DNA of 64,000 bases from an uncultured Nitrospiraceae bacterium (GTDB lineage Bacteria; Nitrospirota; Thermodesulfovibrionia; Thermodesulfovibrionales; UBA6898), in contig CAWEQH010000004.1 of assembly GCA_963811165.1 (NCBI GenBank), positions 416,001 to 480,000 of the forward strand. Direction: 5' to 3'. Under the pieces are notes generated by a model that was given only the letters and a program-made list of their open reading frames with translations, ran no database searches and had not been told where the DNA came from. Positions 27,424 through 59,509 of this stretch are shown in pieces; the stretch's first letter is position 1; every line of letters begins with the position of its first letter. A program made the translations under genes and the position numbers.

Positions 27424-28287
<864 letters not shown>

Positions 28288-28430
28288 AAACGGTGAACAG
28301 TCAGCGTAAGGGAGTTAAATAAGATGAAAATTATCGGGTATACAGCAGTGAAGAGGATCTGTACCAGCAAAATCCGTGGTATTCACCATGGTCACTAACA
28401 CTCACCATACACTTATTGAGAGGAGGAAAG

Positions 28431-29858: not shown

Positions 29859-31369
29859 AAACGATAAAGATCAAAGACCATAATGAGCTCTTCCAGGAGA
29901 AGGAGTATCAGGACCAGTTCGAAAATAAAAGGGAGTTCGAGGCCCCCTGGCCGAAGGAAAAGGTGAGGGAGATCGCCGAATGGACGAAGACCCTTGAATA
30001 TCAGGAAAGGAACTTTGCCAGGAAGAATATAAAGATAAACCCTGCAAAGGCCTGCCAGCCCCTCGGGGCGATCTTCTGTTCGTCGGGTTTTGCCGGGACT
30101 ATGCCCTTTGTTCAGGGCGCGCAGGGCTGCGTGGCCTATTTCAGAAGCCATCTCAACAGGCACTTCAAAGAGCCGATGGCGGCCATCTCCTCTTCAATGA
30201 CGGAAGATGCGGCGGTATTTGGCGGGCTGAACAACATGCTCGAAGGGCTCGAAAACGCATATACACTCTATCACCCGAAGATGGTTGCGGTATGCACAAC
30301 CTGCATGGCCGAGGTGATCGGAGACGATCTGAACGCCTATATAAGGACGGCAAAGGAAAAAGAGCTGATACCGAAGGACCTGCCGGTCCCCTTTGCGCAT
30401 ACACCGAGCTTTGTCGGTTCGTACGTGAACGGTTACGACAATATGATGAAAGGTATCCTTTCTTCCGTCACCGCAGGCAAGAAGGGCGAACCTAATGGAA
30501 AGATCAACGTCATCATGGGATTCGATACCTACACCGGCGATTACCATGAGATAAAGAGGCTGCTTACGATTATGGGCGTGGATTTTACGCTTCTATCGGA
30601 CGCCAGCGCAATTTTCGATTCGCCCAATACAGGCGAGTATAAGCTCTATCCCGGCGGCACTCCGCTTGAGGACGCGATGGATTCGATAAACGCCAGCGCC
30701 ACCGTCGCCCTTCAGCAGTATTCGACGTTTAAGACGATGGATTACATCCAGAAGGAATGGAGCCAGAAGACGCTGGCGCTTTCGCCCATAGGAGTAAGGA
30801 ACACCGACTCCTTTTTTGAACAGGTGAGCAAGCTGACGGGAAGGCCGATACCCCAGGAGATAGAAGATGAACGCGGAAGGGCTGTCGATGCGATGGTCGA
30901 CTCGCACCCGTATATCCACGGAAAGAGGTTCGCCCTTGTGGGAGACCCGGACACGCTGTTGGGCCTTGTGAGTTTTCTGATGGAGATGGGCGGAACGCCT
31001 GTCCATATCGTCTGCTCAATGGGAGACAAGAAATTCGAAGAAGATATGCAGGCCCTCCTTGACTCAAGCCCTTTCGGAAGCGAGGCGAAGGTGTATTCGG
31101 GCAAGGACATGTGGCATTTGAGGTCGCTTATGTTTACCGACCCCGTGGACCTGCTCATAGGCAACTCGTATGCGAAATTTTTGTGGCGGGACACGGGTAC
31201 GCCGCTTGTGAGGATCGGGTTCCCGCTTTTCGACAGGCACCATCTGCACAGATATCCGATCATCGGCTATCAGGGCGTCTTAAATCTGGTGACCATGATC
31301 GTAAACACTGTCCTTGACGAGATGGACAGAAAGACGATGAATACCACGAGTTTTGATGTGATACGGTGA
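29855..31369 (+). CDS. nifK: Nitrogenase MoFe protein beta chain
   Basis: [27 protein letters not shown] and FDRHHLHR motifs. ATGA overlap with nifD. Confidence 0.97.
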
Positions 31370-31429
31370 GCGAGGCAAACATTTTATGAGTGTACTGGAT
31401 GTGTATTTAGTATGTAAGTATTTAAGCCT

Positions 31430-31513
31430 GTCATTCCGGCAGTGTTTTGAGCCGGAATCCAGTGGTTGGCTTTTTAAAGTCGCTGGATGCCGGATTAAGT
31501 CCTCCGGCATGAC
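31430..31513. repeat. GTCATTCCGG...CCGGCATGAC palindromic (REP-like) element
   Basis: Double-hairpin unit of the same family as those at 1253, 37598, 37749 and 49161. Confidence 0.75.
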
Positions 31514-31554
31514 GACCAAAAACTTTATGAACAGACTCTAAATAGAGGTCAACG

Positions 31555-34179
31555 ATGATAACGCATATAGATAAACTGACAGAGCACGGATGCGCTGTCG
31601 AAAAAAAGGACAGGGTCTGCAGATCAAGAGGTGGGGAGTCGTGCGCCTTTGACGGGGCGATGATCGTGCTTCAGCCGATCGCCGACGCCGCCCATCTTAT
31701 CCACGGTCCGATAGCCTGCTGCGGCAACTCATGGGAAGGACGCGGCTCCCTGTCTTCAAGGGGCGTCCTCCACAAAATGGGTTTTACGACCGACATGTCT
31801 GAACTGGACGTTGTCTACGGCGCGGAGGACAAGCTCAAGAGGGCCATAGAAGAGACCGCTTCCTCGGTAATGCCGAAGGCCATCTTTGTATATGCCACAT
31901 GCGTAAGCGGGCTTATCGGCGAGGACATCGATTTGGTTTGCAAGGATGCACAGAGGAAACTTGGCATCCCGGTCATCCCTGTGAATGCCCCGGGCTTTGT
32001 CGGTCCCAAGAACCTGGGAAACAGGATCGCTGGAGAGGTCCTGCTCGATCATGTGATAGGCACCGGCGAGCCTCCATTTCTGACCGATTACGACATCAAT
32101 CTTATCGGCGAATATAACATAGCCGGCGACCTCCGGCTGGTAGAGCCGGTCCTTAAAGCGGCGGGCATCAACATCCTTTCGAGGATAACGGGTGATGCTA
32201 CATTTAACGAAATCACCTATGCCCACAGGGCAAAGCTCAATGTCGTCGTCTGTAGCAGGGCCCTGATAAATGTGGCCAGGGAGATGGAAAAAAGATATGG
32301 CATTCCCTTTGTCGAGGTCTCGTTCTTCGGTAAAACCGAGATGTCGAAGGCGATTAGAATGATTGTAGGGGCGTATCGCGATACGCCCGCATACCAAAGC
32401 CTGGCAGACAAAGCCGAATCCGTCATCGAGGGGGAAGAAGGAAGACTCGATGGAAGACTGAAATCTTTCGAACACCTCAAAGGGAAAAAGGCAGTCCTCT
32501 ATACGGGCGGCGTGAAAAGCTGGTCTTTTATTTCGGCCCTCATGGATTTGGGAATAGAGATAAAGGCTGTCGGGACTAAAAAAAGCAGCGTCGAAGATGA
32601 AGAAAAGATGAAGCGGATACTCGGTGAAGACGCGCCCCTTATCGAAGACACGACACCCGGGAACCTCCTTAGGCTCTTGAGGGAGAATGAGGCCGACCTG
32701 CTTGTCGCAGGCGGAAGAAACCAGTACCTGGGAATAAAAGAGGGATATCCCTTTATAGACGTCAACCAGGAGAGGCATACTGCCTATGCGGGATATGACG
32801 GTCTTCTGAATCTGGCAAAACAGATCAGCGACGCCATGAGGTTTTATGGCCGTCAGCGGGCGGCTGCAGGCTGGCCAGGTATAGCAAAAAAAGTAAGAGA
32901 CGAAGGCCATAAGGCGAACACGGATAGCTGTCTTATCGATCCCCTGAAACATTCTCAGTCCATAGGCGCTGCAATGGCCTTTCAGGGCGTGCATAATGCG
33001 CTCCCGATAATTCACGGCGCACAGGGCTGCACGTTTCTCGGCAAGGTCCTCCTGACGAAGCATTTCAGGGAGCCTATTGCGCTTGCAGGCACAAAGCTCT
33101 TCGCTGAAGACGTGATCATGGGCAGCGACGAAAAATTATCAAAAACAATAGACGGGGTCATCTCGAAAAACAGTCCCGAGGTGATTGCGGTGCTGAGTTC
33201 GGGCCTGTCGGAAGTGCGCGGTGACGATGTCAGTGAAATCGTAAAGAAGTTCCGGCAGACGTCGGAGGCAAGAGTCCTGCACGTCCCGACACCCGATTAT
33301 GAGGGGGGGCTTGAAACGGGTTATGCAAGGGCAGTGGAGGAAATGGTGCGTCTGGCCTTTGAGTTATGTCCTTCTCACTCCGCTTCAAAAGCGAACGGCC
33401 GGATTAATGTGCTTGTGGGCTCGCATCTGACGCCTGCTGATTTTACGGAACTAAGAGAGATCATCGGGTCCTTCGGACTAAGGCCGATCATGCTTCCCGA
33501 CCTTTCGGCCTTAGATGGAAGCAGGGTGGGTATTTCCCCCATTGCAAAGGGCGGCACTTCGAAAGAGGAGATCGCGCTTCTGGCGTCCTCGGAATTTACC
33601 ATTGCTATCGGGGCCAGTATGGAAGGTCCCGCAAAGCTCATAAAAGAGAAATTCAATATCGAATACAGGGTTTTCGAAAGTCTTACCGGACTCAGGGACA
33701 CGGATGTGTTTATGAAAACGATTTCCTTACTGGGCGGAAAGCCCATGGCCCCTAAATACGAAAGACAGAGAAGGGTCCTAGCAGACGGAATGAGGGACGC
33801 CCATTTCTATTTCGGGGGCAAGCGCATAGGCATCGCCCTGGAGCCGGACCTTGCGCTTCAGACATCGGCATGGCTCGATGAAATGGGGGCGAAGATAAAA
33901 ATTGTGGTGCTGCCGCAGTCTTCGAAGGCCGCCGATAAGATCCCGGCTGAAGATGTGGTTATAGGAGGACTCTCCGGGATTAAAGGCGGGCTGGACGTCC
34001 TGATCTCAAACTCGCATGCCGAAGACGCGGCAGGCAGGCTCGGCGTGCCGCTTTATCAGACTGGGTTTCCCGTCTATAAAGTCATCGGCAATACCGCAAA
34101 GGTGACCATAGGGTATGGCGGCACGCATGCCGTCATTAATGAAGTTGCTAACCTTCTTATCAGGGGAGGACATTCATGA
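31555..34179 (+). CDS. nifEN: Fused FeMo-cofactor scaffold NifE-NifN
   Basis: NifE motifs (CAFDGA, HGPIAC, YTGGVKSWS) continue in frame into NifN motifs (PLKHSQ, HGAQGC). Confidence 0.93.
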   Translation: MITHIDKLTEHGCAVEKKDRVCRSRGGESCAFDGAMIVLQPIADAAHLIHGPIACCGNSWEGRGSLSSRGVLHKMGFTTDMSELDVVYGAEDKLKRAIEETASSVMPKAIFVYATCVSGLIGEDIDLVCKDAQRKLGIPVIPVNAPGFVGPKNLGNRIAGEVLLDHVIGTGEPPFLTDYDINLIGEYNIAGDLRLVEPVLKAAGINILSRITGDATFNEITYAHRAKLNVVVCSRALINVAREMEKRYGIPFVEVSFFGKTEMSKAIRMIVGAYRDTPAYQSLADKAESVIEGEEGRLDGRLKSFEHLKGKKAVLYTGGVKSWSFISALMDLGIEIKAVGTKKSSVEDEEKMKRILGEDAPLIEDTTPGNLLRLLRENEADLLVAGGRNQYLGIKEGYPFIDVNQERHTAYAGYDGLLNLAKQISDAMRFYGRQRAAAGWPGIAKKVRDEGHKANTDSCLIDPLKHSQSIGAAMAFQGVHNALPIIHGAQGCTFLGKVLLTKHFREPIALAGTKLFAEDVIMGSDEKLSKTIDGVISKNSPEVIAVLSSGLSEVRGDDVSEIVKKFRQTSEARVLHVPTPDYEGGLETGYARAVEEMVRLAFELCPSHSASKANGRINVLVGSHLTPADFTELREIIGSFGLRPIMLPDLSALDGSRVGISPIAKGGTSKEEIALLASSEFTIAIGASMEGPAKLIKEKFNIEYRVFESLTGLRDTDVFMKTISLLGGKPMAPKYERQRRVLADGMRDAHFYFGGKRIGIALEPDLALQTSAWLDEMGAKIKIVVLPQSSKAADKIPAEDVVIGGLSGIKGGLDVLISNSHAEDAAGRLGVPLYQTGFPVYKVIGNTAKVTIGYGGTHAVINEVANLLIRGGHS

Positions 34180-35333
34180 TAAATCTCAAACGCAGTATAA
34201 GTCATTTGATGTGGGACATCTCAGGGGCCTTCGGCGATATAGGCGTCATGCTTCCGATTGCGCTGGTCCTGATCGGTAAAAACGGGTTCAACCCCACGGC
34301 GCTTTTCCTGAGTGCCGGACTTTTCTATATACTGGCCGCCTATTATTTTAAGGTCACCATGCCGGTTCAGCCGCTTAAGGCGATGTCTGCAATAGCGATC
34401 ACGGCCGGTCTCGGTCCGGACGTCATCAATGCGGCAGGGATAATGATCGGAGTCGTCTTTCTCCTTATCGCTTTCACGGGGCTGGGAAAAAGACTCGGAG
34501 GTTTCTTTCCTGTGCCGGTGGTCCGTGGGATACAGTTAGGACTGGGGCTCATGCTTATAAAAACTTCGGCGGGTCTTCTGAGTGCCGATTATATTACTGC
34601 TGCCGTGGCCTGTACAATCCTCATCCTGAGTCTGTCTTTTGCCAGGAGGGTCCCGCCTCTTATCCCGATTATGATATTCGGGACGGTCATGGCCGTGCTC
34701 AATGCCAAGGCAGCGTCTTTCGGGCCGGTCGGGCTTAAGGTATCGCTGCCGGAAGGGCATAATTTATGGATAGGGCTTACCGTACTGGTATTTCCGCAGC
34801 TGGCCCTGTCTTTTGGAAATGCGATCGTCGCTGCTGAGGCCACAGGGAAAATGCTTTACGGGGAAAGGGCGAGACGCCTGACGCTAAAGAGCATACCGTT
34901 AAGTATGGGAATAGCCAATGTTATCTCAGGCATCATTGGAGGCGTCCCGATGTGTCACGGCTCAGGCGGGTTTACCGCGCATGCTAAGTTCGGGGCGAAA
35001 AGGGAGACCTCTGGCTATATAATCGGGCTGGTGCTCATCGCAATCGCCCTTGTCCTGGGCAGATCCGGGCCTGCGGTTCTGTCGGTATTCCCCCTCGGTA
35101 TCCTGGGGGTGCTCCTTTGCTATGTCGGCATACAGCATGCATTTTACGTAAAGGACATCAGAGGCGATAAAAAGGCATTGGCGGTGGCCCTTTCGGTCGC
35201 CGCAATCAGTCTTCTTACGAACAACCTGACCACGGGCTTCATGGCAGGCATAGGACTCTACTATTGCCTTAGCTGGAGGCCGGGCGGCATAGGGCGTGCG
35301 GTGAAACAAACCTCGAGTGAGGCACGTTTATGA
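34176..35333 (+). CDS. MOT1-family (MFS_MOT1) putative molybdate transporter
   Basis: SGAFGDIG, PVQPLKA, VVRGIQLGLG and PMCHGSGG...FGA motifs. Overlaps the nifEN stop. Confidence 0.85.
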   Translation: MINLKRSISHLMWDISGAFGDIGVMLPIALVLIGKNGFNPTALFLSAGLFYILAAYYFKVTMPVQPLKAMSAIAITAGLGPDVINAAGIMIGVVFLLIAFTGLGKRLGGFFPVPVVRGIQLGLGLMLIKTSAGLLSADYITAAVACTILILSLSFARRVPPLIPIMIFGTVMAVLNAKAASFGPVGLKVSLPEGHNLWIGLTVLVFPQLALSFGNAIVAAEATGKMLYGERARRLTLKSIPLSMGIANVISGIIGGVPMCHGSGGFTAHAKFGAKRETSGYIIGLVLIAIALVLGRSGPAVLSVFPLGILGVLLCYVGIQHAFYVKDIRGDKKALAVALSVAAISLLTNNLTTGFMAGIGLYYCLSWRPGGIGRAVKQTSSEARL

Positions 35334-35390
35334 AAAGTGTAAGACCCTGTCATTCGTCAGTGTCTGACGGGTAAGGAAAGGAGGTTCAAA

Positions 35391-35798
35391 GTGATAAAAA
35401 TTGCATTTGCAACAACTGACGGCGTAGAGGTGAATGAACACTTCGGGAGGGCCGGGGCATTCGCGATCTACGATCTGACGACGGACGGCTTTGCCTTCAG
35501 GGAGATGAGGAAGTTTGCCGAAGGACGCGACACTAATATCGAGGAGACAAAGGGAGCTGGCGCTCTGCACGATGACCTTGTTGAGAAAAAAGTCAAAAGG
35601 CTTTCTGACTGCAAGATAGTCTACCTCACTGAAATCGGCGGCCCTTCTGCGTCACGCCTCATAAGAAGAGGCATAATGCCGATAAAGGTCAAGAGCGTTG
35701 TCACCATAAAAGAATCGCTCGAAAAGTTACTTGAGATGATCAGGACCTCTCCGCCGCCATGGCTGAGGAAGGAACTGAAAATCAAGGATGAAGAATAA
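35391..35798 (+). CDS. nifX: NifX FeMo-co binding protein
   Basis: KIAFAT...VNEHFG...EIGGP...PPPWLRK. Confidence 0.9.
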   Translation: MIKIAFATTDGVEVNEHFGRAGAFAIYDLTTDGFAFREMRKFAEGRDTNIEETKGAGALHDDLVEKKVKRLSDCKIVYLTEIGGPSASRLIRRGIMPIKVKSVVTIKESLEKLLEMIRTSPPPWLRKELKIKDEE

Positions 35799-35870
35799 CC
35801 AAAAGACGCGGCGATCGTGGTCTTTTGTATCACCGATTGATACTATACAAACCATTGAGGAGGAAACAAG

Positions 35871-36188
35871 ATGAAGATGATAAGGGCGTTCATAAGGCCG
35901 GAAAAGGAACAGGAAGTGGTATTGGCTCTTGAGGGGGCGGGCTTTCCGTCTCTGACGAAGATGCCGGTATTCGGCAGGGGAAAACAGAAGGGACTTCAGG
36001 TCGGTCCCGTGCATTATGATGAATTACCGAAGACGCTCGTGATGATGGTGGTTCATGACGCCGAGGTGGACAAGGTCGTCGGCCTTATCTCAGGGAAGGC
36101 GCGGACCGGTTTTATCGGCGACGGAAAGATATTCGTCAGCCCAGTGGAATCTTCTTACACCGTAAGGACTGGAGAGGCGGTTTTATGA
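35871..36188 (+). CDS. nifI1: PII-like nitrogenase regulator NifI1
   Basis: GRGKQKG...YDELPK...GDGKIFV...RTGE, 105 aa. Confidence 0.88.
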   Translation: MKMIRAFIRPEKEQEVVLALEGAGFPSLTKMPVFGRGKQKGLQVGPVHYDELPKTLVMMVVHDAEVDKVVGLISGKARTGFIGDGKIFVSPVESSYTVRTGEAVL

Positions 36189-36601
36189 AAGAGATCACGG
36201 CAATTATCAGGAGGGACAAACTCCCCGAGACTAAAAAGGTCCTTGAAGACCTGGGTTATCCGTCACTGACGATTCAGAGCGTCGACGGCAGAGGCAGACA
36301 AAGAGGGGCCATGTGCGCCGAGATGGACTCGGAGATGCCTGAAAGTTATTGTACGGCGGTCAAGCTTAAACCGACGCCTTCGGCGTATGCACTGGAGCAT
36401 ACACTTCCGAAGGTCGCCCTCTTTGTGCCCAAAAGGTTGCTCACTGTCGTTGTCCCCGATGACGTGGTGACCAAGATCGTTAAGTCGATCATCAAGGTCA
36501 ATCAGACCGGAAGAAACGGTGACGGGAAGATTTTCGTCGCCCCGATCGAAAGTGCGGTAAGGGTGAGGACCGGGGAAAAAGGCGGCGAGGCTATTGCGTA
36601 A
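36185..36601 (+). CDS. nifI2: PII-like nitrogenase regulator NifI2
   Basis: MKEITAIIR, GRGRQ, PKRLL and NQTG..GDGKIFV motifs; long T-loop. Confidence 0.88.
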   Translation: MKEITAIIRRDKLPETKKVLEDLGYPSLTIQSVDGRGRQRGAMCAEMDSEMPESYCTAVKLKPTPSAYALEHTLPKVALFVPKRLLTVVVPDDVVTKIVKSIIKVNQTGRNGDGKIFVAPIESAVRVRTGEKGGEAIA

Positions 36602-36711
36602 GAAACGGCAGACAAAGGGTAAGGTTCAGGTTCAGGAAGAAGGAAATACGTTAGACCATGCGTGCTTATCCTTAATCTCAGCCTTAGCCTGTCTTTATCA
36701 AAGGAGGAACT

Positions 36712-36987
36712 ATGCCTATTATCGGATATACGCGGGGCGGAACCGAATGGACGCCTAAGTTTATTGAATCGATCGATGTCGAAAAATGTATCGGCTGCGG
36801 ACGCTGTTTTAAGGTCTGCAGCCGGGACGTCCTCGAGCTTATCGAAAAACCCTTTGAGGGGGAGGACGAATACGGCGATGACATGGGAAACAAGGTGATG
36901 TCGGTCTCGCATCCCGAAAATTGCATCGGTTGCGAGGCCTGCTCAAAGACGTGCACCAAGAAGTGCCATGTGCACGTGGAAACATAA
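36712..36987 (+). CDS. fdxB: nif-specific ferredoxin III (2x[4Fe-4S])
   Basis: WTPKF...CIGCGRCFKVC...CIGCEAC. Confidence 0.9.
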   Translation: MPIIGYTRGGTEWTPKFIESIDVEKCIGCGRCFKVCSRDVLELIEKPFEGEDEYGDDMGNKVMSVSHPENCIGCEACSKTCTKKCHVHVET

Positions 36988-40253: not shown

Positions 40254-40566
40254 CAAGGCCTTCCTTTTTTTGCGGGTAAATACTTTGGTTATGCCTATCC
40301 GCCCTATACAAATATATGTATATCGATTTAGACGTAATGTCAATCAAGGACGTATTGGCAGGCTATACTACCATCCTCGGCCTCTGTCGCAATCCTAAAT
40401 TTTCGAAGGGGGCTGGCTGGTATCTATCGCGTAAGACACCGAAGGGATGTGTACCGATAAAGAGGGTTCAGTATCGTATTGAAATAAGAGAATAATATTT
40501 TGTAAGATATTGCGTTTCTTATATAATGATACTGTGTGTGAATAAGGGTTTTTAATACGGAGGTAG

Positions 40567-42480
40567 TGACATTAAGCTCATAGGAGAAGACGGAAGCGAA
40601 CAGAATATCGGCGACGTTTCGGAGTTAGAAAAACAGCTCAAAAAATCCAAGGCCATTGCGGTAAAGATCAACGGTCAGCTCCGCGATCTCGGGTCGGTCA
40701 AGTCACTGGGAGAAAACGACGTGGTCGAAGCGGTAACCTTTGATTCGGAGGAGGGCAAGCAGATTTATCGCCACAGCACGTCCCATGTGATGGCCCATGC
40801 CGTGAAAAAACTCTTCCCGGAAGCGAAGGTCGCGATCGGCCCTTCCATCCAGGACGGTTTTTACTACGACTTTGATATCGAAAAGACCTTTACCCCCGAG
40901 GACATCTCCGCCATCGAAAAAGAGATGGATACGCTGACGAAGAAGAACTCGCCTTTCGTCAGGAAAGAGATTTCGAAACAGGAGGCGCTGCAAATTGTTC
41001 TGCGGACATGGGCGAGCCTTATAAGGTCGAACTCCTGAATGACATACCGGATGAAACAGTGACGCTTTACGAGGAAGACGGCTTTGTCGATCTCTGCAGG
41101 GGTCCTCATCTTGCATCGACGGGGAGGATCGCCGCCTTTAAGCTCCTCAGCGTTGCAGGGGCTTACTGGAGAGGCGACGAGAAGAACAAGATGCTCCAGA
41201 GGATCTACGGTACCGCATTTAATGACCGGAAGGACCTGAAGGCATATCTCGATTTCCTCGAGGAGGTCAAAAAACGCGACCACAGGAGACTCGGCAAGGA
41301 ACTGGACCTCTTCAGCATAAGCGACGACATAGGTTCGGGACTCATCCTTTGGCACCCAAACGGCGCATTGATCCGAAAGACGATCGAAGATTTCTGGAGA
41401 AACGAACACCTGAAGGCCGACTATAAGCTCCTCTTTTCCCCCCATATCGCCAAACTCGAACTCTGGAGGAGGTCCGGACACCTCGATTTCTACAGGGAGA
41501 ACATGTATTCCCCGATGGAGATAGAGGGCGTGGACTATGAGCTGAAACCCATGAATTGCCCCTTCCACTTAAGCGTCTACAAGAGTTCGTTGAGGAGTTA
41601 CCGCGATCTGCCGATACGCTACGCCGAACTAGGCACTGTATACCGGTACGAAAGGTCGGGGACCTGCACGGGCTCCTTAGGGTGAGGGGATTTACCCAGG
41701 ACGATGCGCACATCTTTTGCAGGGAGGACCAGATAGAGGAGGAGATACTTGAATATCCTCGATTTTACCCTTTTTATCCTAAAGACGTTCGGATTCGATT
41801 CGTATGACATATATCTTTCTACGCGTCCTGAAAAGTATGTCGGCAGTCCCGAAAACTGGGAAAGGTCGACGAATGCCCTGAAGAACGCGCTTGAGACAAA
41901 GGGCCTGTCGTTTATGGTCGATCCCGGCGAGGGTGTCTTCTACGGCCCGAAGATCGACATCAAGGTGAAGGATTCCCTCGGCCGGGCTTGGCAGTGCAGC
42001 ACGATACAGGTCGATTTCAACAACCCCGAGAGATTCGATATCACGTACAGGGGAGCGGACGGCAAGGAGCACAGGCCGATCATGGTCCATAGGGCGTTGA
42101 TGGGCTCACTCGAAAGGTTCTTCGGGGTCCTGATCGAGCATTATGCCGGGGCCTTTCCGCTCTGGCTGGCCCCGGTCCAGATATCGGTGCTCACCATTTC
42201 GGAGAGGCACGAGAATATGCCGAAAGAGTGTTGCGGCTGCTCTCAGGGCCGGGGCATCAGGGTTGAACTCGATGCCGACAGCGAAAAGATAGGCAATAAG
42301 ATCAGGAAGAGCAGTGTGCGAAAGATCCCGTATTCGGTTATAATAGGAGATAAAGAGGCGTCTGAAGCACAGCAGTAATGCTGAGAAGGCGGAATGGGGA
42401 GAATTTGGGCCCGTTTGCGATTGGATGAATTAATATCTTTTCTTGAGGAAGAGATAAACTCCATGGAGGTGAAAACATAA
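40567..42480 (+). CDS. thrS: Threonine--tRNA ligase (several apparent frameshifts)
   Basis: [42 protein letters not shown] and HRALMGS motifs spread over frames. Confidence 0.93.
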
Positions 42481-42996
42481 GCGGGAGAGACGTTGGCAAA
42501 GGCATAAGAGTCAACGAGCAGATCAGGGCAAGGGAGATGAGGGTCATCGACAGTGAAGGCGAGCAGCTTGGAGTGATGACGGTCAGAGAGGCCCTTAGCC
42601 ATGCGGCCGAAAAGGGAACTGGACCTGGTCGAGGTGTCGCCGACAGCGGCGCCGCCCGTATGCAAGATACTTGATTTCGGGAAATACAAGTATCAGCTCA
42701 ATAAAAAACATACCCAGAAAAAGACGATAGACGTCAAAGAGGTCAAGGTAAGGCCGCAGATAAACGAGCATGACCTTGGGTTGAAGATAAGGAACATAAA
42801 CCGCTTCATCGAGGAGGGAGACAAGGCCAAGATCGTGATGTATTTCAGGGGGCGGGAAATCATCCGTCCTGAATTGGGGATGAAGGTCTTCGAAAAAATA
42901 ACCCAGCAGCTGACGGGCAAATTTCAGATCGAGCAGCAGCCAAGACTTGAGGGCAACCACATCACCATGGTAGTTGCCCCCAAATCAGCGGGATAA
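42477..42996 (+). CDS. infC: Translation initiation factor IF-3 (ATA start; one apparent frameshift)
   Basis: [29 protein letters not shown] and FRGRE motifs. Confidence 0.9.
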
Positions 42997-43196
42997 TAAA
43001 ACCGGAACCAAGGCGGCCGACGTTCAAGCCTGGTTGTCTTTTGTCCATTGTTCTTCAGGGTGCCTGAAAGGTACCCGTGACAAATATATTTTTTTAGGTT
43101 ATAATTATATCTCTTATTTCTGATCGATCAAGAGAAGGATACCGATGCACGAGACTAGTGCGGCTTATTTCCGCATATTATTTTAAGGAGGAAGAG

Positions 43197-43394
43197 ATGC
43201 CAAAGATAAAGACCCACAGAGGGGCAGCAAAGAGGTTTAAAGTGACGGGACCAGGAAAGATCAAGAGGGGAAGGCCTACAAGGGCCATCTCCTGACGACA
43301 AGTCCGCAAAGAGGACGAGAAAGCTGAGGACAGCTGACACTGGTATCTACAAGCGATCATGACGGCATAAAGACGCTTTTGCCGTATCTTATAA
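43197..43394 (+). CDS. rpmI: 50S ribosomal protein L35 (apparent indels)
   Basis: [18 protein letters not shown]...LLPY; lies between infC and rplT. Confidence 0.9.
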
Positions 43395-43504
43395 GAAGCA
43401 GCAACTATAACTGTAATCAAGCAGTGAAAGTGCAACTGAAGAATAAGTTTCTGAGTCTGTCCTTTCATACCGCTTTACGTTTCTATGATTTTGAGGAGGA
43501 GAAG

Positions 43505-43861
43505 ATGCCCAGGGCAAAAGGTGGTTTTAAGACAAGAAGAAGAAGGAAGAAGATCCTTGACAGGGCAAGGGATATTACGGCGGAAAAGCCGTCTTTTCAG
43601 AGTCGCGACGGAGACCGTCGAAAGGCGCTTCAGTACGCGTATCGCGACAGGAAGGCGAAGAAACGCGAATTCAGGTCGCTCTGGATAACCAGGATCAGCG
43701 CCGCTGTCCGCGCCATGGGCCTGAATTACAGCCAGTTCATGCACGGCCTGAGGAAGGCCGATATTGTACTGGACAGGAAATCGCTTGCCGATCTGGCGTA
43801 CAGCGATCCCAAGGCGTTTAGCCAGATCGCCGAGACAGTAAAAACACAATTGGCCTCATAA
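43505..43861 (+). CDS. rplT: 50S ribosomal protein L20
   Basis: MPRAKGG...[21 protein letters not shown]...LDRKSLA; short out-of-frame stretch. Confidence 0.93.
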
Positions 43862-43874
43862 GCGCGTCCGGTGG

Positions 43875-44919
43875 ATGAACATCTCTCTCCAGAACAATAC
43901 TCGGTTCACTCACACAGATAGAAGAGACCTTCCGGTCCGACATCGGGAGGGTCGCAACCTTGGCGACCTCCAGCAGGTCAGGGCCAAGTATTCAGGAAAG
44001 AAAGGGCTTTTAACGGAAAAGATGAAGGCCCTTTCCTCGGTCCCCGATCCCATCCAGAAGAAGCGCAATTACGGCAGGACGGATCAACGAGCTAAAGAAT
44101 TTTATCGAGGAGTCGTTAAAGGGCAGGGAACTTCTTCTTAAGGAAGTCGAGCAGGAGAGGCGGCTCCTCACTGAAAAGATAGACATCACCCTCCCGGGTA
44201 AATCCGTTAAGTTCGGCAGAAGACATCCGATAAACCAGGTCCTCTCAGAGATAAAGGACATATTCGTCTCGATGGGTTTCGGGATAGAAGACGGGCCCGA
44301 GGTCGAGCTCGACCACTATAATTTCGAGGCCCTCAATATTCCGAAAGACCATCCGGCCCGGGACATGCAAGACACCTTTTACATCTCCGGCGACGTAGTG
44401 CTTCGGACCCATACCTCTCCGGTACAGGTAAGGGTAATGGAAAAGAGAAAGCCGCCCCTCAAGATCATTGCGCCGGGCAAGGTATACCGCTGCGATGCAG
44501 ATGTCTCCCATACCGCCATGTTCCACCAGGTCGAAGGGCTCATGGTGGACACCGACGTTTCCTTCAGTGACCTTAAGGGTGTGCTCGAATTATTTATCCA
44601 CAGTTTTTTCGGCAAAGAGACCCCTGTGAGGTTCAGGCCCAGCTATTTCCCCTTTACCGAGCCGAGCGCCGAGGTGGATATCGGCTGTGTATTTTGTAAA
44701 GGGAAAGGCTGCAGGGTATGTAAGACAACCGGATGGCTTGAGGTGCTTGGCTCAGGACTTGTCAATCCCAGGGTGTTTGAGATGGCCGGATACGACCCCG
44801 GGCAATACTCCGGGTTTGCCTTCGGCATGGGAGTCGAGAGGATGACGATGCTCAAGTATTCGATAGATGATATACGGCTGTTCTATGAAAACGACCTGAG
44901 GTTTTTAAGGCAATTCTAA
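43875..44919 (+). CDS. pheS: Phenylalanine--tRNA ligase alpha subunit (5' part frameshifted)
   Basis: [32 protein letters not shown] and GFAFGMG motifs. Confidence 0.93.
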
Positions 44920-49505: not shown

Positions 49506-50741
49506 CTACACATTAACAGTAAGTATTTTCCTGACGATCTCCGGGTAGGTTGCGATGAAGCGAAGTTCGTCGTCCGTGAGCGCTTTCTGCGTATGGAGGT
49601 TGGCGTACTGGACGAGTTCGAGGACCTTTCTGGCCTCGTCGTCGGTCCGGAAATGGATGCCCAGTTTATCGTAGACATGCCTGAACCCTTTGACCCCGCC
49701 GTATTCTCCCGTTGTGATGATCCTGCCTGTTTCGAGCAGTTCGGGTTCGCCCCTGCCGACGTCTTCGGGATCATAGAGCTCGTAATTGCGCCTGTCTTTC
49801 AGCGCCCCGTCAGCATGTATCCCGGATTCATGGGCAAAGGCGTTTGAGCCGATCCCTGGCTGATTGATCGGGATCGGGAGGCCGAATGCGTAGGAAGCGT
49901 ATCTGGCGACCTTCCAGGACCTTTTCAGGTCTACATGCTCATCGAGGTGTACCTTCCGGCTCAGTCCGTGCGAGAACTTAAGGGCGAGGATTGTCGAAAC
50001 CAGGTCGCAGTTTCCGCAGCGTTCGCCGTATCCGTTTAAGGTAGTATTAATGTAGGTATCGACCCCCATTTCAATCGCACCCTGTGCACCGGCACACGAC
50101 ACGGCTTCGGCCATTCCGAGATCGTTGTGGCAGTGCATCTCAAGAGGGAACTTCGTTGCGGAGGCGAGCGCCTTGATCCTCTCGTAGATCGTGATCGGGT
50201 CGTCGGCACCGAGTGTGTCGCAGTATCTGAAGCGGTCTGCCCCGGCCTCTTTGCCGGCAAGCGTGAAGTCGATGAGCCGTTGCAGTTCCGTCCTCGAGGC
50301 ATCTTCGGCGTTTATCCCCACCGTCTCGGCCCCCAGTTCCCTGGCTGTTGCGACCGCCGCGACCATCGACTTTACTATGTCTTTCCAGGTCTTTTTTCCC
50401 AGGAACTTGCCGTGTATCATGATTTCGGAGGTGGACATGGAGATGTTTAGGTGCTTTATGTCGGGGCAGTTCTTAAAGGCAAGCCTCACGTCTTCTGGGA
50501 TCGCCCTGCACCACCCCTCCAGGTGGGTCCTTTTTATTGCGCCGACTTTCGCCAGTTCCAGGTTGCCGTTTATGTAGTTGACCTCGTGCTTGAGGGTCGG
50601 GAACCCTATCTCGCTCTGAAAGACCCCCATCTCGTCGAGATAGATATTGAGCATGGTCTTAGAAAGCTTCGGAAGCAGGATGCGCGACGTCTGCACCCCG
50701 TCCCTGTTGGTAACGTCTATGAGATATACTTTTCCCGGCAT
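49506..50741 (-). CDS. LeuA/NifV-family Claisen synthase (homocitrate synthase or Re-citrate synthase)
   Basis: DVTNRDGVQ, AEDASR, HCHNDLG, GERCGN and AHESGIH motifs. Confidence 0.85.
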   Translation of the reverse strand: MPGKVYLIDVTNRDGVQTSRILLPKLSKTMLNIYLDEMGVFQSEIGFPTLKHEVNYINGNLELAKVGAIKRTHLEGWCRAIPEDVRLAFKNCPDIKHLNISMSTSEIMIHGKFLGKKTWKDIVKSMVAAVATARELGAETVGINAEDASRTELQRLIDFTLAGKEAGADRFRYCDTLGADDPITIYERIKALASATKFPLEMHCHNDLGMAEAVSCAGAQGAIEMGVDTYINTTLNGYGERCGNCDLVSTILALKFSHGLSRKVHLDEHVDLKRSWKVARYASYAFGLPIPINQPGIGSNAFAHESGIHADGALKDRRNYELYDPEDVGRGEPELLETGRIITTGEYGGVKGFRHVYDKLGIHFRTDDEARKVLELVQYANLHTQKALTDDELRFIATYPEIVRKILTVNV

Positions 50742-51707: not shown

Positions 51708-51938
51708 ATGAATGACGAAAAGGTGAAAGAGATTATCGCAAAGCAGCTGGGCGTGAACATCGCCGAAGTGACGCCGGAGGCTTCGTTCGTCGAAGATCTG
51801 GGCGCGGACTCGCTCGATACCGTGGAACTCGTGATGGCCTTTGAAGAGACCTTCAATATAGAAATCCCCGATGAGGATGCGGAAAAGATAACGAAGGTAA
51901 AAGACGCTATAGAATATATAAAGAACAAACAGTCTTAA
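51708..51938 (+). CDS. acpP: Acyl carrier protein
   Basis: [18 protein letters not shown]. Confidence 0.97.
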
Positions 51939-53184
51939 TGAGCGGAAGAAGGGTCGTTGTTACAGGCCTGGGGCTCATAAGTCCTCTGGGCATCGGAGTA
52001 GAAAAAAGCTGGAGCGGGATGCTTCAGGGGAGGTCCGGCATCAGACGGATAACCCAGTTTGACGCTTCCTTGTTTGCAACGAAGATTGCCGGCGAGGTCG
52101 ACGGCTTCAACCCCGAAGATTACATCGAGCCGAAAGAAGTAAAGAAGATGGACAGGTTCATCCATTTCGGCGTTGCCGCCTCGACCATGGCCTTTGCAGA
52201 TTCGGGGCTTAAGATAGACGAGCATAATGCCGACGCGCGTCGGGGTTTATGTGGGGTCCGGAATGGGCGGTCTTCCGGCGATCGAGCATTACCATAAGGT
52301 ATTGCTCGAAAAGGGCCCGCGAAGGATCACGCCTTTTTTTATCCCGATGCTTATAATCAATCTTGCCGCAGGACAGATATCCATAAAGTTCGGAGCAAAG
52401 GGCCCGAACTCGGCCCCTGCTACCGCCTGCGCAACAGGCAGCCACGCCATAGGCGATGCGTTCAAGGTCATCCAGCGCGGCGATGCGGACGCGATGATCG
52501 CAGGCGGCACGGAATCCTGCATCACCTCGATGGGGATCGGCGGGTTCAACGCGATGAAGGCGCTGTCGACAAGGAACGACGAACCGGAGAAGGCGAGCCG
52601 GCCTTTCGACAGGGACAGGGACGGTTTTATCATGGGAGAAGGGTCCGGGATCATGATCATCGAGGAACTGGACCATGCGCTCGCAAGAAAGGCGCAGGAT
52701 CTACGCAGAAATTGTCGGGTATGGCCTGACTGGAGATGCCTACCATATTACTTCGCCGGCCCCGGGGGGTGAGGGCGCTGCGCGGTGTATGGCGATGGCC
52801 CTGAAAGACGCCGGCATGGGCCCTTCGGATGTCGATTACATAAACGCCCATGGGACGTCTACGAAATACGGGGACGAACTCGAGACCCAGGCGATCAAGA
52901 CGGTCTTTAAAGAGCATGCCTATAAGGTTGCGGTCAGCTCGACGAAATCGATGACCGGACACCTGCTTGGCGCTGCGGGCGGGGTTGAAGCGGTCATCTG
53001 CGCGCTAAGTATCCATAACAGCATCGTCCCGCCCACTATCAACCTCGACAACCCTGATCCGGAATGCGATCTCGATTACGTACCTAATGCGGCGAGAAAG
53101 GGAGATATCGGGGTTGCACTGTCGAATTCTTTCGGTTTCGGCGGCACGAACGCCTGTCTCCTGTTTAAAAAATTCTCAAATTGA
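51938..53184 (+). CDS. fabF: Beta-ketoacyl-ACP synthase II (two apparent frameshifts)
   Basis: [29 protein letters not shown] and SNSFGFGG motifs in three ORF pieces. Confidence 0.93.
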
Positions 53185-53925: not shown

Positions 53926-54813
53926 GTGGATATACACCATCTCAGGGTATTTGCATCTGTCTTCAAACACAGAAGCTTTTCAAAGGCTTCCGAGGAGTTG
54001 CACCTGACTCAGCCGACGGTGAGCGACCATATCAAGGCGCTTGAAGAGGAGCTCAACTGCAAGCTCTTCGACCGGCTCAGCAGAAAGATTATCCCCACAA
54101 AAGAGGCCGGCGTTCTTATTGGGCGCGCCGGTGAGATCATCGAGAAGGTCGAGGGCATTCAGGGACTTTTGGGGGAGTCCAGAAAAGAGCTTTCCGGCCA
54201 TCTCATCATCGGCGCAAGCACAATCCCTGCAACGTATATCCTTCCGGGTCTCACCGCGTCATACAGGAAAAAACATCCCGGCGTTTTTTTCGAGATAGTC
54301 GTTTCGGACTCGCGGGGGATAATAGATAAAGTCGCGGGGCACGATCTCCTTGTCGGCATGGTGGGGGCCAAGCTGGATAACGGGCAGGTCCATTACACCC
54401 CTTTTCTTGACGACGAGCTGATAGCAATAGCAGCGCCTTCCCCGGCAAAGATCAGGGGCCTCGGCCTCAGAGAGATTGCGGCACTTCCAATGGTCATGCG
54501 GGAACAGGGGTCAGGCACACGGAGGGAGTTTGAAAAGATACTCCTAAAGGAGGGTATCGATCCGCAGCAGCTCAGCATTGTCGGCCTGTTTGGCTCTACC
54601 GATGCGATTAAACAGGCGGTCAAGGAAGGGATGGGCATCTCGGTTATTTCCCGCCGCGCAGTGCGGGATGAGCTTAAGTGCAACATGCTTCGGGAGATCA
54701 AGATAAAGAATGCCGATATGAAACGGCAATTTTTTATCGTCACCCACAGGAAAAGAACGCTCCCGCACATCTACAGAGGCTTCCTTGAATTTCTTCTTCC
54801 CGGTTCCCAATAG
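53926..54813 (+). CDS. LysR-family regulator (selenium/sulfur-metabolism-associated CysL-like type)
   Basis: SFSKAS..LHLTQPTVS HTH, IGASTIP and REQGSGTR motifs. Confidence 0.9.
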   Translation: MDIHHLRVFASVFKHRSFSKASEELHLTQPTVSDHIKALEEELNCKLFDRLSRKIIPTKEAGVLIGRAGEIIEKVEGIQGLLGESRKELSGHLIIGASTIPATYILPGLTASYRKKHPGVFFEIVVSDSRGIIDKVAGHDLLVGMVGAKLDNGQVHYTPFLDDELIAIAAPSPAKIRGLGLREIAALPMVMREQGSGTRREFEKILLKEGIDPQQLSIVGLFGSTDAIKQAVKEGMGISVISRRAVRDELKCNMLREIKIKNADMKRQFFIVTHRKRTLPHIYRGFLEFLLPGSQ

Positions 54814-54874
54814 AGTTTCGGCGTAATTCCCCGACTCAATTATTATACCCGCCAGACTGCAATCCATTCGACCG

Positions 54875-54907
54875 ATAGGTAGTGCCCTATGGATAGATAT
54901 TATCTAT
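54875..54907. promoter_or_regulatory. Candidate LysR binding boxes upstream of the tRNA-like gene
   Basis: ATAGGtagtgcCCTAT (54875-54890) and ATAGATattATCTAT (54893-54907, T-N11-A). Confidence 0.5.
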
Positions 54908-55035
54908 TGGTAATATAGATTAAAGATATCTTATTATTTGACCGGTAGGGTATCCGGAAATGACGATGGATACCTATGAAGCACTACGAAGAGAGAATGT
55001 ATAACGCGAAGAGATATAAGGGCTATACCTGAAGC

Positions 55036-55130
55036 GGGGGGCAAGGGGTTGGTGCCCCTCCCGGTCTGCAAAACCGGCATATAGCCGAAAATAGGCTATT
55101 GTGGGTTCGATTCCCACTGTTCCCTCTCCA
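55036..55130 (+). tRNA. tRNA-Sec-shaped tRNA with Cys anticodon GCA (selC*-like tRNA-Cys)
   Basis: D-arm AGGGGT-TGGT-GCCCCT; anticodon arm CCGGT-CTGCAAA-ACCGG; long V-arm ATAGCC/GGCTAT; T-arm GTGGG-TTCGATT-CCCAC; ends T-CCA. Confidence 0.8.
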
Positions 55131-55185
55131 TCTAAACTCTCACGTCTCAGACGTTTAAATCTAATTATAAAAGGAGGATCAGAAG

Positions 55186-55632
55186 ATGGCGGAAGAAAAG
55201 AAGATGACCGTGGAAGAGGTGAATGAGTATATGAAGCAGAAATGCGGCTTTGTGCCGAGAATGTTTCAGATCATAAACACGGTAACGCCCGAGCCCGGAA
55301 GGACGTTTGCCGACTTTTATGCGAGTATTTTCGGAGACGGCGCATTGTCGAAAAAAATAAAGGAACTGATGTTCATGTCCGGCGGAGTCGCCTATTGCTC
55401 TCCGAGATGTATCATTCATGTCATCCCGGCGATTAATGCGGGAGCGACGACGGGAGAGATATTCGAGGCCGCATCTGTCGGCATGATTTTGGCAGGTTTC
55501 GTGCCCGGCGGCCCGGGAATACCCTATGCCTTCGAATATGCCCTTAAGTGTCTCGATATTGAGGCAAAATACAGGAAGGGCGAAAAATGGGAGTATCTGC
55601 CCGCGCCCAGGTTCGATCATGGGGTGTTCTGA
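55186..55632 (+). CDS. Carboxymuconolactone decarboxylase/AhpD-family protein
   Basis: GALSKKIKELM...CSPRCIIH...GAT..EIFEA. Confidence 0.85.
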   Translation: MAEEKKMTVEEVNEYMKQKCGFVPRMFQIINTVTPEPGRTFADFYASIFGDGALSKKIKELMFMSGGVAYCSPRCIIHVIPAINAGATTGEIFEAASVGMILAGFVPGGPGIPYAFEYALKCLDIEAKYRKGEKWEYLPAPRFDHGVF

Positions 55633-56458: not shown

Positions 56459-57049
56459 ATGGTTATAGACGCAAGAAATCAGGGCTGTCCGAAACCTGTG
56501 ATGATGGCTGAAGAAGCCCTCTCGAAAATCACGGAAGGAATTGTCGAGGTCATTGTTGACAATGAGCCTTCTGCAGATAACCTTGCATGGTTTGCAAAGA
56601 GCAATGCCTTCTTTTCTGAGACAATCAGGGATGGTCGAAACTGGCGGGTGAAGATAGTGAAAGGGTATGCTTGTGCGCCTGCGCCTGAAGCAGAAAAAGC
56701 ACCGGAGGCGAAAAAAGACCTGCTCATAGTCGTGGGCACGGATACGATGGGGAAGGAAGAAGAACTCGGCAAGATTCTGATGAAGGGCTATTTTGAAACG
56801 ATGAAGACCTACAAGCAGATACCTGACGCGATCTTTTTTCTGAATGCCGGCGTAAAGCTTACCACTACAAATGCCGACATCTGTCCCATTCTGAAAGAGA
56901 TCGAGACTATAGGTGTGGAGATATATTCCTGCGGAACATGCCTCAAACACTACGGACTTGAAGCACAACTAAAGGTGGGCCACAGGGGGACGACGAACCA
57001 TATTGTGGAAGGCATGAAGGACTTTAATAAGACTGTCTGGATAGGATAG
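56459..57049 (+). CDS. yedF: YedF-type TusA/SirA + DsrE-like sulfur/selenium carrier
   Basis: DARNQGCPKPV (TusA CPxP) fused to FLNAGV...SCGTCL (DsrE-like). Confidence 0.85.
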   Translation: MVIDARNQGCPKPVMMAEEALSKITEGIVEVIVDNEPSADNLAWFAKSNAFFSETIRDGRNWRVKIVKGYACAPAPEAEKAPEAKKDLLIVVGTDTMGKEEELGKILMKGYFETMKTYKQIPDAIFFLNAGVKLTTTNADICPILKEIETIGVEIYSCGTCLKHYGLEAQLKVGHRGTTNHIVEGMKDFNKTVWIG

Positions 57050-57460: not shown

Positions 57461-59509
57461 CTACTGGATCGAGAGTCCGTTAACGGTAACGATTCCTAAG
57501 CCGCTTATCGTCACCGTGCCGTGAACCGCTGAGAACCCGGTTGCAGGCGAGAATGAAGAATCATAGCCTCCGTTAAGGGTCACATCGAAGTCATTATCGA
57601 GTGTCAGGTCTTCATAAAAAGTAATCGACTGGATGTCGAGGGTGTCGGCAGCGGCGATTGCGACGTAGGCGTCACTAATGCTGGAATAGAAGGAAACGTC
57701 ACCTACCTTCTTTACAAGGGCAGTAGGATCGCAGGTCGAAAACCTGAAGGCCCCTATCCGAGTATGCCAGTTGCCGCTGTCGCCATTTGTTTGGCTGTCG
57801 TAATATTCATTGACGTACCAAAAAGTGCAATCGTCTGACGGATCGACACTCATCGAGGAATAATCGCCCCAACGGTCGCAGGGCGCCCCACCGCAGTTGT
57901 TTGTCTGAGATCCCGTTCCCGAAAATAGCACGGTTTCGGTCTGCGGAAGCTGGTTAAAGGGATCGGATGCGAGCCTGCCTGAGTAAGCGATGCTTGGATA
58001 ATTAGGCGCAGTGCCGTTTGAGGTGCTATAACCCAGGGCCATGTTGCCGTCCTTGTCCGCCGACAGGCTCCCCATCCAGCGATAGAGAGTGATATCCGGC
58101 GCATAAATCTGCTCCTGGACAGGAGTTGTCTTGATGGTGCCTCCTGACACATCGATCTGTGACCACTGCGGCCGGACTGTGGAGGTCGGTGACGTCATTA
58201 CACTGTGGACCACCCATAGGGATTCGCTGGACCCGATCTTCCGATAGGGTACTTTCTGCATAAGCCGGTCTCCTAAACTGTCCAGCTTCGTTGTCGTACT
58301 CGGCTGGGGCACGATACTCGGAGCGCTTAAGAAAGCGTCATTATACGCTGTTTGAGATACCAGGACAGGCGCTGCATTAAACGTTCCGACCGAGCAGTTG
58401 CTGCTGGTCAAAAACGTGCGCACTTCAAATCCCCAATTGATCTGAGATTCCGAGACAAAGTAGTTCGGTGTTCCGGCGGGCGGTAAAGAACCCGGAGAAG
58501 CGCCGAGTATGGTGCTTGGTATCATGGTGAAGATGGGGTAGGTAGGGTAGGGAAGGAACCCTATCGTCCAGCTGAGCGTGTTGCCGGCCTCGAGGTCGCT
58601 CCGGCTGAAGGCGGCATAGAGCACGCCGACAAATGGGTTCACTGGGTCGTTGGTAAACTCATTTGCTGCCATATAGAGGCAGTCCGGCCATACGCCGAAT
58701 TTGGGATAATCGTTCAGCGCTCCCACAGGGGGGCGGCCAGTTCCCCCGGGGTCCATGCGAAGAGGATAGAGCCACCATCCGCCTGAAACAGGGTCACTCG
58801 TTTTCGATACCGCAATGCATTCGTAGTAAGGCGAAATAGGATTGGAGCCGCTGAAGCCAAAGGCAAAATGGGCGAGTATCCAGCGGTCGACTAAGGGATC
58901 GTAGACCACGATCGGATCACCTTGGGAGTTGCTTTTACAAGGGTTTGATCCGCCTGAGCCCCAGAGGTTGTCTTCGGTAAAGGACGCCAAAAGAGTCCCT
59001 GACTTGCTATAAATCGCATATGAGGTGTTTACTGCCAGGATGTAGTTGTTCGGACCAACATCGCCGTTCGGGTCCGGAGGCCAGCCGCCGCCGCATTGCC
59101 CTCCGGTGCAGCTGTCAGTAAAATTCAGTCCCAAAAAGTTCTCGACCGGGCTCGGCATGGAGGCCGCAGGCGGTTGGGCAAAAGGAGCAGATGGCGCGTA
59201 GACGGCCGCAGGGTATTTCGGCGTAACAGGCGCTCTTCTTTGTGGACGGTAAGGTTTCGGCGAATTAGCAGAGCTCTTTAGGGCAAAATAGGGCAGGCCC
59301 CTTAGATCGCCATCAAATTCGAAGGGAATGACGGGTTCCCCGGCGGAGGTGACAACGGTGTCGCTCACCGCGGCCGACGATGCGCCGCTGTTTTGATTTG
59401 CTGCGGATACCGGCCGGACGTAAAAAAGTAAAAGGAGCAAGCACCCGAGGAGGAGACTTGTTCTCATGTAATCGTATCCGGAATCGCTGCCTTTGTTGTT
59501 CTCTTTCAT
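57461..59509 (-). CDS. Large secreted protein of unknown function
   Basis: N-terminal hydrophobic signal; PPDPNGDVGPN, GDPIVVYD, DYPK and RWGDYS motifs. Confidence 0.8.
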   Translation of the reverse strand: MKENNKGSDSGYDYMRTSLLLGCLLLLLFYVRPVSAANQNSGASSAAVSDTVVTSAGEPVIPFEFDGDLRGLPYFALKSSANSPKPYRPQRRAPVTPKYPAAVYAPSAPFAQPPAASMPSPVENFLGLNFTDSCTGGQCGGGWPPDPNGDVGPNNYILAVNTSYAIYSKSGTLLASFTEDNLWGSGGSNPCKSNSQGDPIVVYDPLVDRWILAHFAFGFSGSNPISPYYECIAVSKTSDPVSGGWWLYPLRMDPGGTGRPPVGALNDYPKFGVWPDCLYMAANEFTNDPVNPFVGVLYAAFSRSDLEAGNTLSWTIGFLPYPTYPIFTMIPSTILGASPGSLPPAGTPNYFVSESQINWGFEVRTFLTSSNCSVGTFNAAPVLVSQTAYNDAFLSAPSIVPQPSTTTKLDSLGDRLMQKVPYRKIGSSESLWVVHSVMTSPTSTVRPQWSQIDVSGGTIKTTPVQEQIYAPDITLYRWMGSLSADKDGNMALGYSTSNGTAPNYPSIAYSGRLASDPFNQLPQTETVLFSGTGSQTNNCGGAPCDRWGDYSSMSVDPSDDCTFWYVNEYYDSQTNGDSGNWHTRIGAFRFSTCDPTALVKKVGDVSFYSSISDAYVAIAAADTLDIQSITFYEDLTLDNDFDVTLNGGYDSSFSPATGFSAVHGTVTISGLGIVTVNGLSIQ

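Follow-up and report, generated by a model that had tools for sequence, protein, structure and literature searches.

A selC*-type cysteine tRNA with a putative selenium-responsive operator in an uncultured Nitrospiraceae bacterium

Introduction

An uncultured bacterium of the Nitrospiraceae carries a tRNA gene that joins a tRNA-Sec-like body to a GCA anticodon and a U at the discriminator position (U73), and the question raised by this locus is what such a tRNA does in a genome that also encodes canonical tRNA-Cys and tRNA-Sec. The gene lies in a 64,000-nucleotide stretch of DNA, referred to here as the window, from an assembly of 3.66 Mb in 10 contigs that is 95% complete. tRNAs that combine a tRNA-Sec-like body with U73 and either GCA or UCA as the anticodon have been defined as selC* tRNA-Cys (Mukai et al., 2017, PMC5389517), and the working definition of tRNA-ReC likewise specifies U73 with either anticodon (PMC13582414). 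The hosts described are anaerobes, including Thermodesulfovibrio and Nitrospirae, and the isolate genomes carry selABCD (PMC5389517). A clostridial GCA member has been reported to be delivered by SelB, not to be bound by EF-Tu and to read UGA as cysteine (PMC11415595), and the tRNA-ReC of Desulfotomaculum nigrificans is reported to be delivered by SelB and to insert cysteine at SECIS-marked UGA codons (Vargas-Rodriguez et al., 2018; PMC11415595, PMC13582414). A role under selenium scarcity has already been posited for the UCA/CysRS* type (PMC9437257), while the way in which tRNA-Sec and tRNA-ReC share their tasks was still called unclear in 2026 (PMC13582414). The available parts of three further articles (PMC8124441, PMC8762117, PMC4329189) add nothing on tRNAs of this kind.

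Identity and fold of the tRNA

The gene, on the + strand of the window, comprises the following parts.

55036..55130 (+), selC* tRNA-Cys (tRNA-ReC), Nitrospirae type, 95 nt
55036-55043, acceptor stem, 5' strand
55044-55049/55054-55059, D-stem, loop UGGU
55061-55065/55073-55077, anticodon stem, 5 bp
55068-55070, anticodon GCA
55081-55086/55094-55099, V-stem
55101-55105/55113-55117, T-stem
55118-55126, acceptor stem, 3' strand, 9 nt
55120..55121 (+), UU in place of the single base of all homologs; probable assembly indel, otherwise a private lesion
55127, discriminator U73
55128-55130, encoded CCA

Every base of the tRNA-Sec-like body, the GCA anticodon, U73 and the encoded CCA is as described in a first-pass annotation of the same DNA, and the model comparison proposed there gave a SeC-type match as well as a Cys call: the Rfam tRNA-Sec model (RF01852) scores 57.3 bits (gathering threshold 47), and ARAGORN labels positions 55036-55130 tRNA-Cys(gca). 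The layout is that of an 8/5 fold, in which an 8-bp acceptor stem abuts a 5-6-bp D-stem and is accompanied by a long V-arm and a 5-bp T-stem. The fold has a z-score of -2.77, and 3 of 200 shuffled sequences fold equally well. A covariance model built from 21 relatives, the window copy being left out, assigns the tRNA 88.8 bits and aligns one U of the 3' acceptor strand as inserted. Base for base, the tRNA shares its 13-nt anticodon core with the canonical tRNA-Cys of the same genome and its 17-nt T-arm with the tRNA-Sec of that genome.

Canonical tRNA-Sec has a 6-bp anticodon stem. The corresponding stem has 5 bp here, and the sixth position pairs in only four of 27 relatives; the UCA anticodon and G73 of canonical selC are absent as well. 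The 6-bp D-stem with a UGGU loop, which had been taken as a hallmark of tRNA-Sec, is present in the window copy, but the sixth pair is formed in only 10 of the 21 aligned relatives and broken in 11. With a tRNA-Sec-like body of at least 80 nt, a long V-arm, an extended acceptor stem, U73 and GCA, the window tRNA is an extra cysteine tRNA of a rare and already described class, selC* tRNA-Cys or tRNA-ReC.

Conservation and relation to known systems

The covariance model detected selC* in 29 of 60 sampled relatives, and a pattern applied to 401 genomes from the phylum gave 58 matches in 54 genomes; 54 of the matches carry GCA and four are canonical (UCA and G73). The combination of UCA with U73 was absent from these 58 matches in 401 genomes, the pattern being one that misses very long V-arms. 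G1:C72, U73 and the 5-bp T-stem are invariant in 27 of 27 relatives, U73 occurs in 51 of 51 distinct sequences, and the anticodon loop is almost invariant across selC* loci. In an alignment of 21 relatives, pairing in the 8-bp acceptor helix reaches 98.8%, and five of the eight pairs have changed on both sides. Over the whole alignment 95.4% of cells pair and 16 of 31 pairs show two-sided changes, a level of covariation reached by none of 500 shuffles in a test that is inflated by the kinship of the rows. The earlier argument that two coordinated changes do not reflect a sequencing error is borne out, an error at the anticodon or discriminator being ruled out by the conservation of both in all homologs. 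The selC*-type reading proposed at that stage is likewise upheld by this conservation and by the presence of separate canonical tRNA-Cys and tRNA-Sec genes. At three loci (L045, L051 and L056, in genomes G044, G048 and G041) the selC* copy has a very long variable arm and measures 119-127 nt, and four genomes (G033, G245, G417 and G421) hold two selC* copies apiece.

The selC* reported for Nitrospirae and Thermodesulfovibrio by Mukai et al. shares with the window tRNA the tRNA-Sec-like body, GCA, U73, CCA and coexistence with selABCD. Compared by eye, the T. yellowstonii selC* listed there agrees over the 66 nt shown with the tRNA of G325, a same-order relative (PMC5389517), and the window copy differs from this type by one extra acceptor U, which is probably an error. 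The D. nigrificans tRNA-ReC is likewise a GCA tRNA-Cys with the shape of tRNA-Sec, but it belongs to another phylum and sequence subtype. The deltaproteobacterial selC*-selB*-cysS* operon has U73 in common with the present type, together with a second selB behind the tRNA, a feature seen here only in three relatives of one genus (g56). It differs in its 8/4 fold, A51a bulge and often UCA anticodon, whereas the window type is 8/5, has GCA in every match, retains G1:C72 and lacks a linked cysS*; the window's genome holds neither selB* nor a linked cysS*.

The additional U of the acceptor stem

A 9-nt acceptor 3' strand occurs only in the window copy among 51 distinct sequences, the other 50 having 8 nt. 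The extra U is absent from four contigs of public runs X1, X2 (two contigs) and X3, which are contigs of relatives and not of the strain itself, and one contig that is about 95% identical over 54400-55136 has its sole gap at the extra U. Within 12.7 kb of the window (40.5-53.2 kb), at least six frameshifts interrupt thrS, infC, pheS and fabF, of which thrS and pheS are single-copy genes, and outside that region a frameshift was found in 2 of 56 genes tested. Since the extra U is private to one copy, missing in the relatives' contigs and close to frameshifted essential genes, we judge it probably to be an assembly indel, and the sequences compared indicate that the bulge is almost certainly not a feature of the class. 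The irregular acceptor stem with a bulged U and a 5-bp T-stem, as first described, stands as regards the bases and the T-stem, but its bulge (1 of 51 sequences) is probably an artefact of assembly. The frameshifted genes occupy window positions 40565-44904 and 51938-53184, where rpmI seems to be split too, and these interruptions are probably also assembly errors. The second EF-Tu copy (C8:104266-105077) likewise appears to be in two pieces.

A different explanation is that the U is real, that it impairs processing or charging and that the window copy is decaying within a class that is functional in relatives. When the U is kept, a 5-nt 3' overhang remains in the fold of lowest energy, and according to this model G1:C72 of the window copy would be disturbed. 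The frameshifts nearby argue against decay, even if they are scarce elsewhere, and so does the contig that differs by a single gap at this very base, although the public-run contigs compared are all from relatives and include no near-identical one across the site. The operon has been lost or has degenerated in some relatives, such as G040, where the upstream box, gene fragments and yedF occur without the tRNA; in the window, the box and flanking genes are intact. Decay of the window copy is therefore considered unlikely, and an assembly indel remains the preferred reading.

Selenium and cysteine machinery of the genome

The genome search suggested in the first-pass annotation recovered selA, selB, selD, cysS and a canonical tRNA-Cys. 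The latter is located at C1:280702, and a canonical tRNA-Sec (UCA, G73) at C8:443233-443330. Because these separate genes are present, the window tRNA counts as a third one rather than as a mutated selC, and a decaying selC is ruled out by the intact selC elsewhere in the genome. In the canonical tRNA-Sec the eighth acceptor pair is a C-A mismatch, as it is in the relative L050. All 29 relatives with selC* have selA and selB, a co-occurrence that weighs little because both genes are near-universal (60 and 59 of 61 genomes, respectively). A second selB (selB*) was not found in the window's genome, which has one selB; exactly one is present in 59 of 61 genomes and none in the other two.

In at least 10 proteins of this genome a Cys/Sec site coincides with an in-frame UGA. 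Besides SelD, the set comprises the alpha subunits of two formate dehydrogenases, a peroxiredoxin, two UXX-star proteins, an OS_HP2-like protein and three proteins with a thioredoxin fold. This number is a lower bound, as it derives from 20 candidates picked by eye among 170 listed of 783 that passed a filter; of the 20, nine were unconvincing, 11 were scanned and 10 were kept. A DsrK selenoprotein candidate is uncertain.

The first-pass annotation had also called for a search for a second cysS. A CysRS-like gene (L018, C10:697737-698951) does occur, flanked by genes for a MATE transporter and a B12-type radical SAM protein, and is present in 21 of 60 relatives. It is nevertheless rejected as a partner of the tRNA, being on another contig, lacking the WHIEC and HHENE positions of true CysRS and showing no co-occurrence (12 of 29 genomes with the tRNA, 9 of 31 without; p=0.42). 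The encoded protein, which has no anticodon domain and has changed zinc-site motifs, may ligate a different substrate. No cysS*-type partner is linked to selC* in the window's genome.

Genomic setting

The tRNA stands between a LysR regulator gene and three genes on the same strand.

53926..54813 (+), LysR regulator, selenium-metabolism-associated (LysR_Sec_metab); NF040786, 290 bits, cut-off 250
54890..54922 (+), candidate LysR-type operator; palindrome ATAG-N7-CTAT (54893-54907), then a -35-like hexamer and a second half-site
55186..55632 (+), CMD/AhpD-family protein (PF02627), with a second copy of 93% identity on contig C8
55691..56449 (+), rhodanese-like protein of two domains, its N-terminus bearing a hydrophobic segment; below the cut-offs of named families
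56459..57049 (+), YedF, sulfurtransferase-like selenium metabolism protein; TIGR03527, 193.8 bits, cut-off 110

Across 51 selC* loci, many of them short, so that the counts are lower bounds, the genes near the tRNA include those for LysR (22), YedF (20), a split-Soret cytochrome (12), a double-cubane reductase (8) and a rhodanese (7). The neighbours differ between loci, and eight of the 51 have none of ten reference genes in the DNA at hand. Several operon neighbours look as much sulfur- as selenium-related; for the YeeE protein, one such neighbour, the closest match is the thiosulfate transporter TsuA. In one genome (G377) the tRNA is divergent from selD and also from the small-carrier, yedF and class-V aminotransferase genes behind it. 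In another (locus L076, G040:C21:44131), the LysR gene and a perfect box are followed by gene fragments and yedF without a tRNA, as in a degenerating copy of the operon.

The upstream element and its candidate regulator

Positions 54890-54922 are predicted from their sequence to be the promoter-operator of the tRNA operon. The box consists of the palindrome followed by a TTG-type hexamer and often lies about 51 nt before the tRNA across loci. With a matrix from 20 relatives, the window site scores 35.5 bits and is the top site in 3.66 Mb, the next being 19.8 bits (an overlapping reverse read) and 19.5 bits (the next independent site). A score of at least 20 bits is reached in 38 of 51 loci and missed in 13; among loci outside the training set it is reached in 17 of 30, four of these 17 having been fetched by means of the motif pattern itself. 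In a reverse-strand control, 17 bits were reached in 3 of 30 loci, the site being partly palindromic, and in a downstream control the best score was 2.9 in 25 loci. A promoter scan gave no consensus sigma-70 match at the box. A genome-wide regulon was considered and rejected, as there is only one strong site and none was found before selD or selAB in the window's genome. Similarly, no box was found at the canonical selC loci examined, nor, among the matches listed, beside LysR orthologs located away from the tRNA.

Of the 29 genomes with the tRNA, 26 also encode an ortholog of the adjacent LysR, against 7 of the 31 that lack the tRNA, a contrast that is inflated by physical linkage and kinship. 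The NF040786 label is no proof of selenium sensing, since proteins above its cut-off are encoded in 58 of 61 genomes, frequently as several paralogs, and two of them in the window's genome. HrsM, an archaeal member of the family, represses Cys isogenes when selenium is present (PMC5322559, PMC11097638). The likeness between HrsM (LysR_Se) of Methanococcus and the adjacent LysR is one of NCBIfam family membership only, and HrsM controls back-up Cys-isoform genes in archaea, whereas the back-up here would be a recoding tRNA. We infer that the LysR binds the box, represses the operon and senses selenium, although its signal may be sulfur.

In the literature searched, no published link between LysR and selC* was found; a 2018 study in RNA Biology may already describe the neighbourhoods or selB*. 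The supplement text of PMC5389517, as available, mentions neither LysR and yedF nor an upstream box. The operator, the LysR co-occurrence and a Nitrospirota selB* were thus not met in the literature searched, with the same proviso for the 2018 study.

A second selB behind the tRNA in one genus

In three genomes of the genus g56 (G321, G340 and G417; loci L132, L131 and L138), a second selB lies directly behind selC*, and a separate canonical selB is found elsewhere. Complete copies of the second gene are present in G321 and G340, and the G417 copy is truncated where its contig ends. All three second selBs group in a clade of their own with 100/100 support, in a nine-row tree without an outgroup. 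In both complete copies the C-terminal motif TTRKYALP, which we take to have a role in SECIS binding, has become TNRKCAIH. Previously, selB* had been reported in two deltaproteobacterial groups only, according to the available text of Mukai et al. (2017, PMC5389517). In G340 and G321 the second selB converges on an operon of yedF and a class-V aminotransferase gene.

Proposed role and alternatives

The mechanism proposed is that the ordinary CysRS likely charges selC* with cysteine and that the single SelB of the cell likely delivers the Cys-tRNA to SECIS-marked UGA codons. Under selenium shortage, the adjacent LysR is predicted to release the tRNA operon, and selenoproteins would still be completed, with cysteine replacing selenocysteine. 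We consider it probable, from sequence features and by analogy, that a CysRS-charged, SelB-delivered and LysR-released selC* completes selenoproteins in this manner, and its role is likely that of a selenium-starvation backup for about ten selenoproteins, including SelD. SelB delivery, the lack of EF-Tu binding and the reading of UGA as cysteine by a GCA anticodon are taken from the clostridial literature and would extend to the window lineage by analogy. A point against UGA decoding is that GCA would have to read UGA with a G34-A3 mismatch. The suggestion that the tRNA is poorly used by EF-Tu and served by a dedicated factor agrees with the clostridial GCA member (PMC11415595); this genome itself has one selB and no linked cysS*-type partner.

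The tRNA might instead act as an extra ordinary Cys isoacceptor that works through EF-Tu at UGC and UGU and is induced with a sulfur-trafficking operon for more cysteine decoding. GCA is cognate for these codons, the UCA and U73 variant is missing from the 58 pattern matches, and according to the supplement of PMC5389517 EF-Tu supported the function of an 8/4 selC* in E. coli, but a canonical tRNA-Cys is already present, the 13-bp acceptor/T branch is maintained with covariation, the tRNA is followed by a dedicated second selB in three genomes, and the clostridial GCA member is reported not to bind EF-Tu (PMC11415595). This makes such an isoacceptor very unlikely.

The first-pass annotation also raised roles outside decoding, namely the donation of cysteine or sulfur off the ribosome, or action as a regulatory RNA; either would here serve YedF, rhodanese, double-cubane or CMD proteins. 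The sulfur- and selenium-trafficking genes recorded near the tRNA (YedF, split-Soret cytochrome, double-cubane reductase and rhodanese) would suit it, but the neighbours vary, eight of the 51 loci have none of the ten reference genes in the DNA at hand, the anticodon loop is near-invariant, as decoding would predict, and the CysRS-like gene without an anticodon domain does not track the tRNA. Both roles are unsupported, and we assign them only a very slight probability.

That the tRNA is charged with serine and converted by SelA, placing selenocysteine at SECIS-marked UGC or UGU codons in the manner of the GCA tRNA-Sec of Aeromonas salmonicida (PMC11415595), is scarcely credible, as the long V-arm, tRNA-Sec-like D-arm and 8/5 branch that recommend it are outweighed by U73 in all 51 sequences, an anticodon core equal to that of tRNA-Cys, selenoproteins that use UGA in a genome with a UCA tRNA-Sec, and a basal D-stem pair broken in 11 of 21 relatives.

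Insertion of cysteine at UGA under selenium shortage is thus retained as the preferred reading. In a broader model, whose chances of being right or wrong appear evenly balanced, a LysR_Se repressor on the ATAG-N7-CTAT/-35 element of Thermodesulfovibrionales-like anaerobes would switch the meaning of UGA, to selenocysteine with selenium and to cysteine via tRNA-ReC without it, so that SelD synthesis restarts; one genus would have duplicated SelB into the operon and altered its SECIS-binding motif, giving a dedicated cysteine-recoding factor. The predicted selenoproteins of these genomes may carry cysteine. The candidate operator, the candidate regulator and a natural selC*-selB* pair beyond the deltaproteobacteria make the question of tRNA-Sec versus tRNA-ReC directly testable.

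Other features of the window

At 57461-59509 on the - strand, a 682-aa protein with an N-terminal hydrophobic segment is encoded, without a Pfam or NCBIfam match. A nitrogenase cluster at 27445-36984 contains nifH, two nitrogenase component 1 genes, a molybdate MFS transporter gene, two P-II-like genes, a ferredoxin gene and a gene whose 874-aa product has two component 1 domains and is likely a fused NifE-NifN. A homocitrate-synthase-like gene lies at 49506-50741. Insertion sequences are represented by a broken transposase-like element (1600-2950) and an IS110 transposase (4116-5135), and an HTH-bearing protein at 15538-16740 is likely a transposase.
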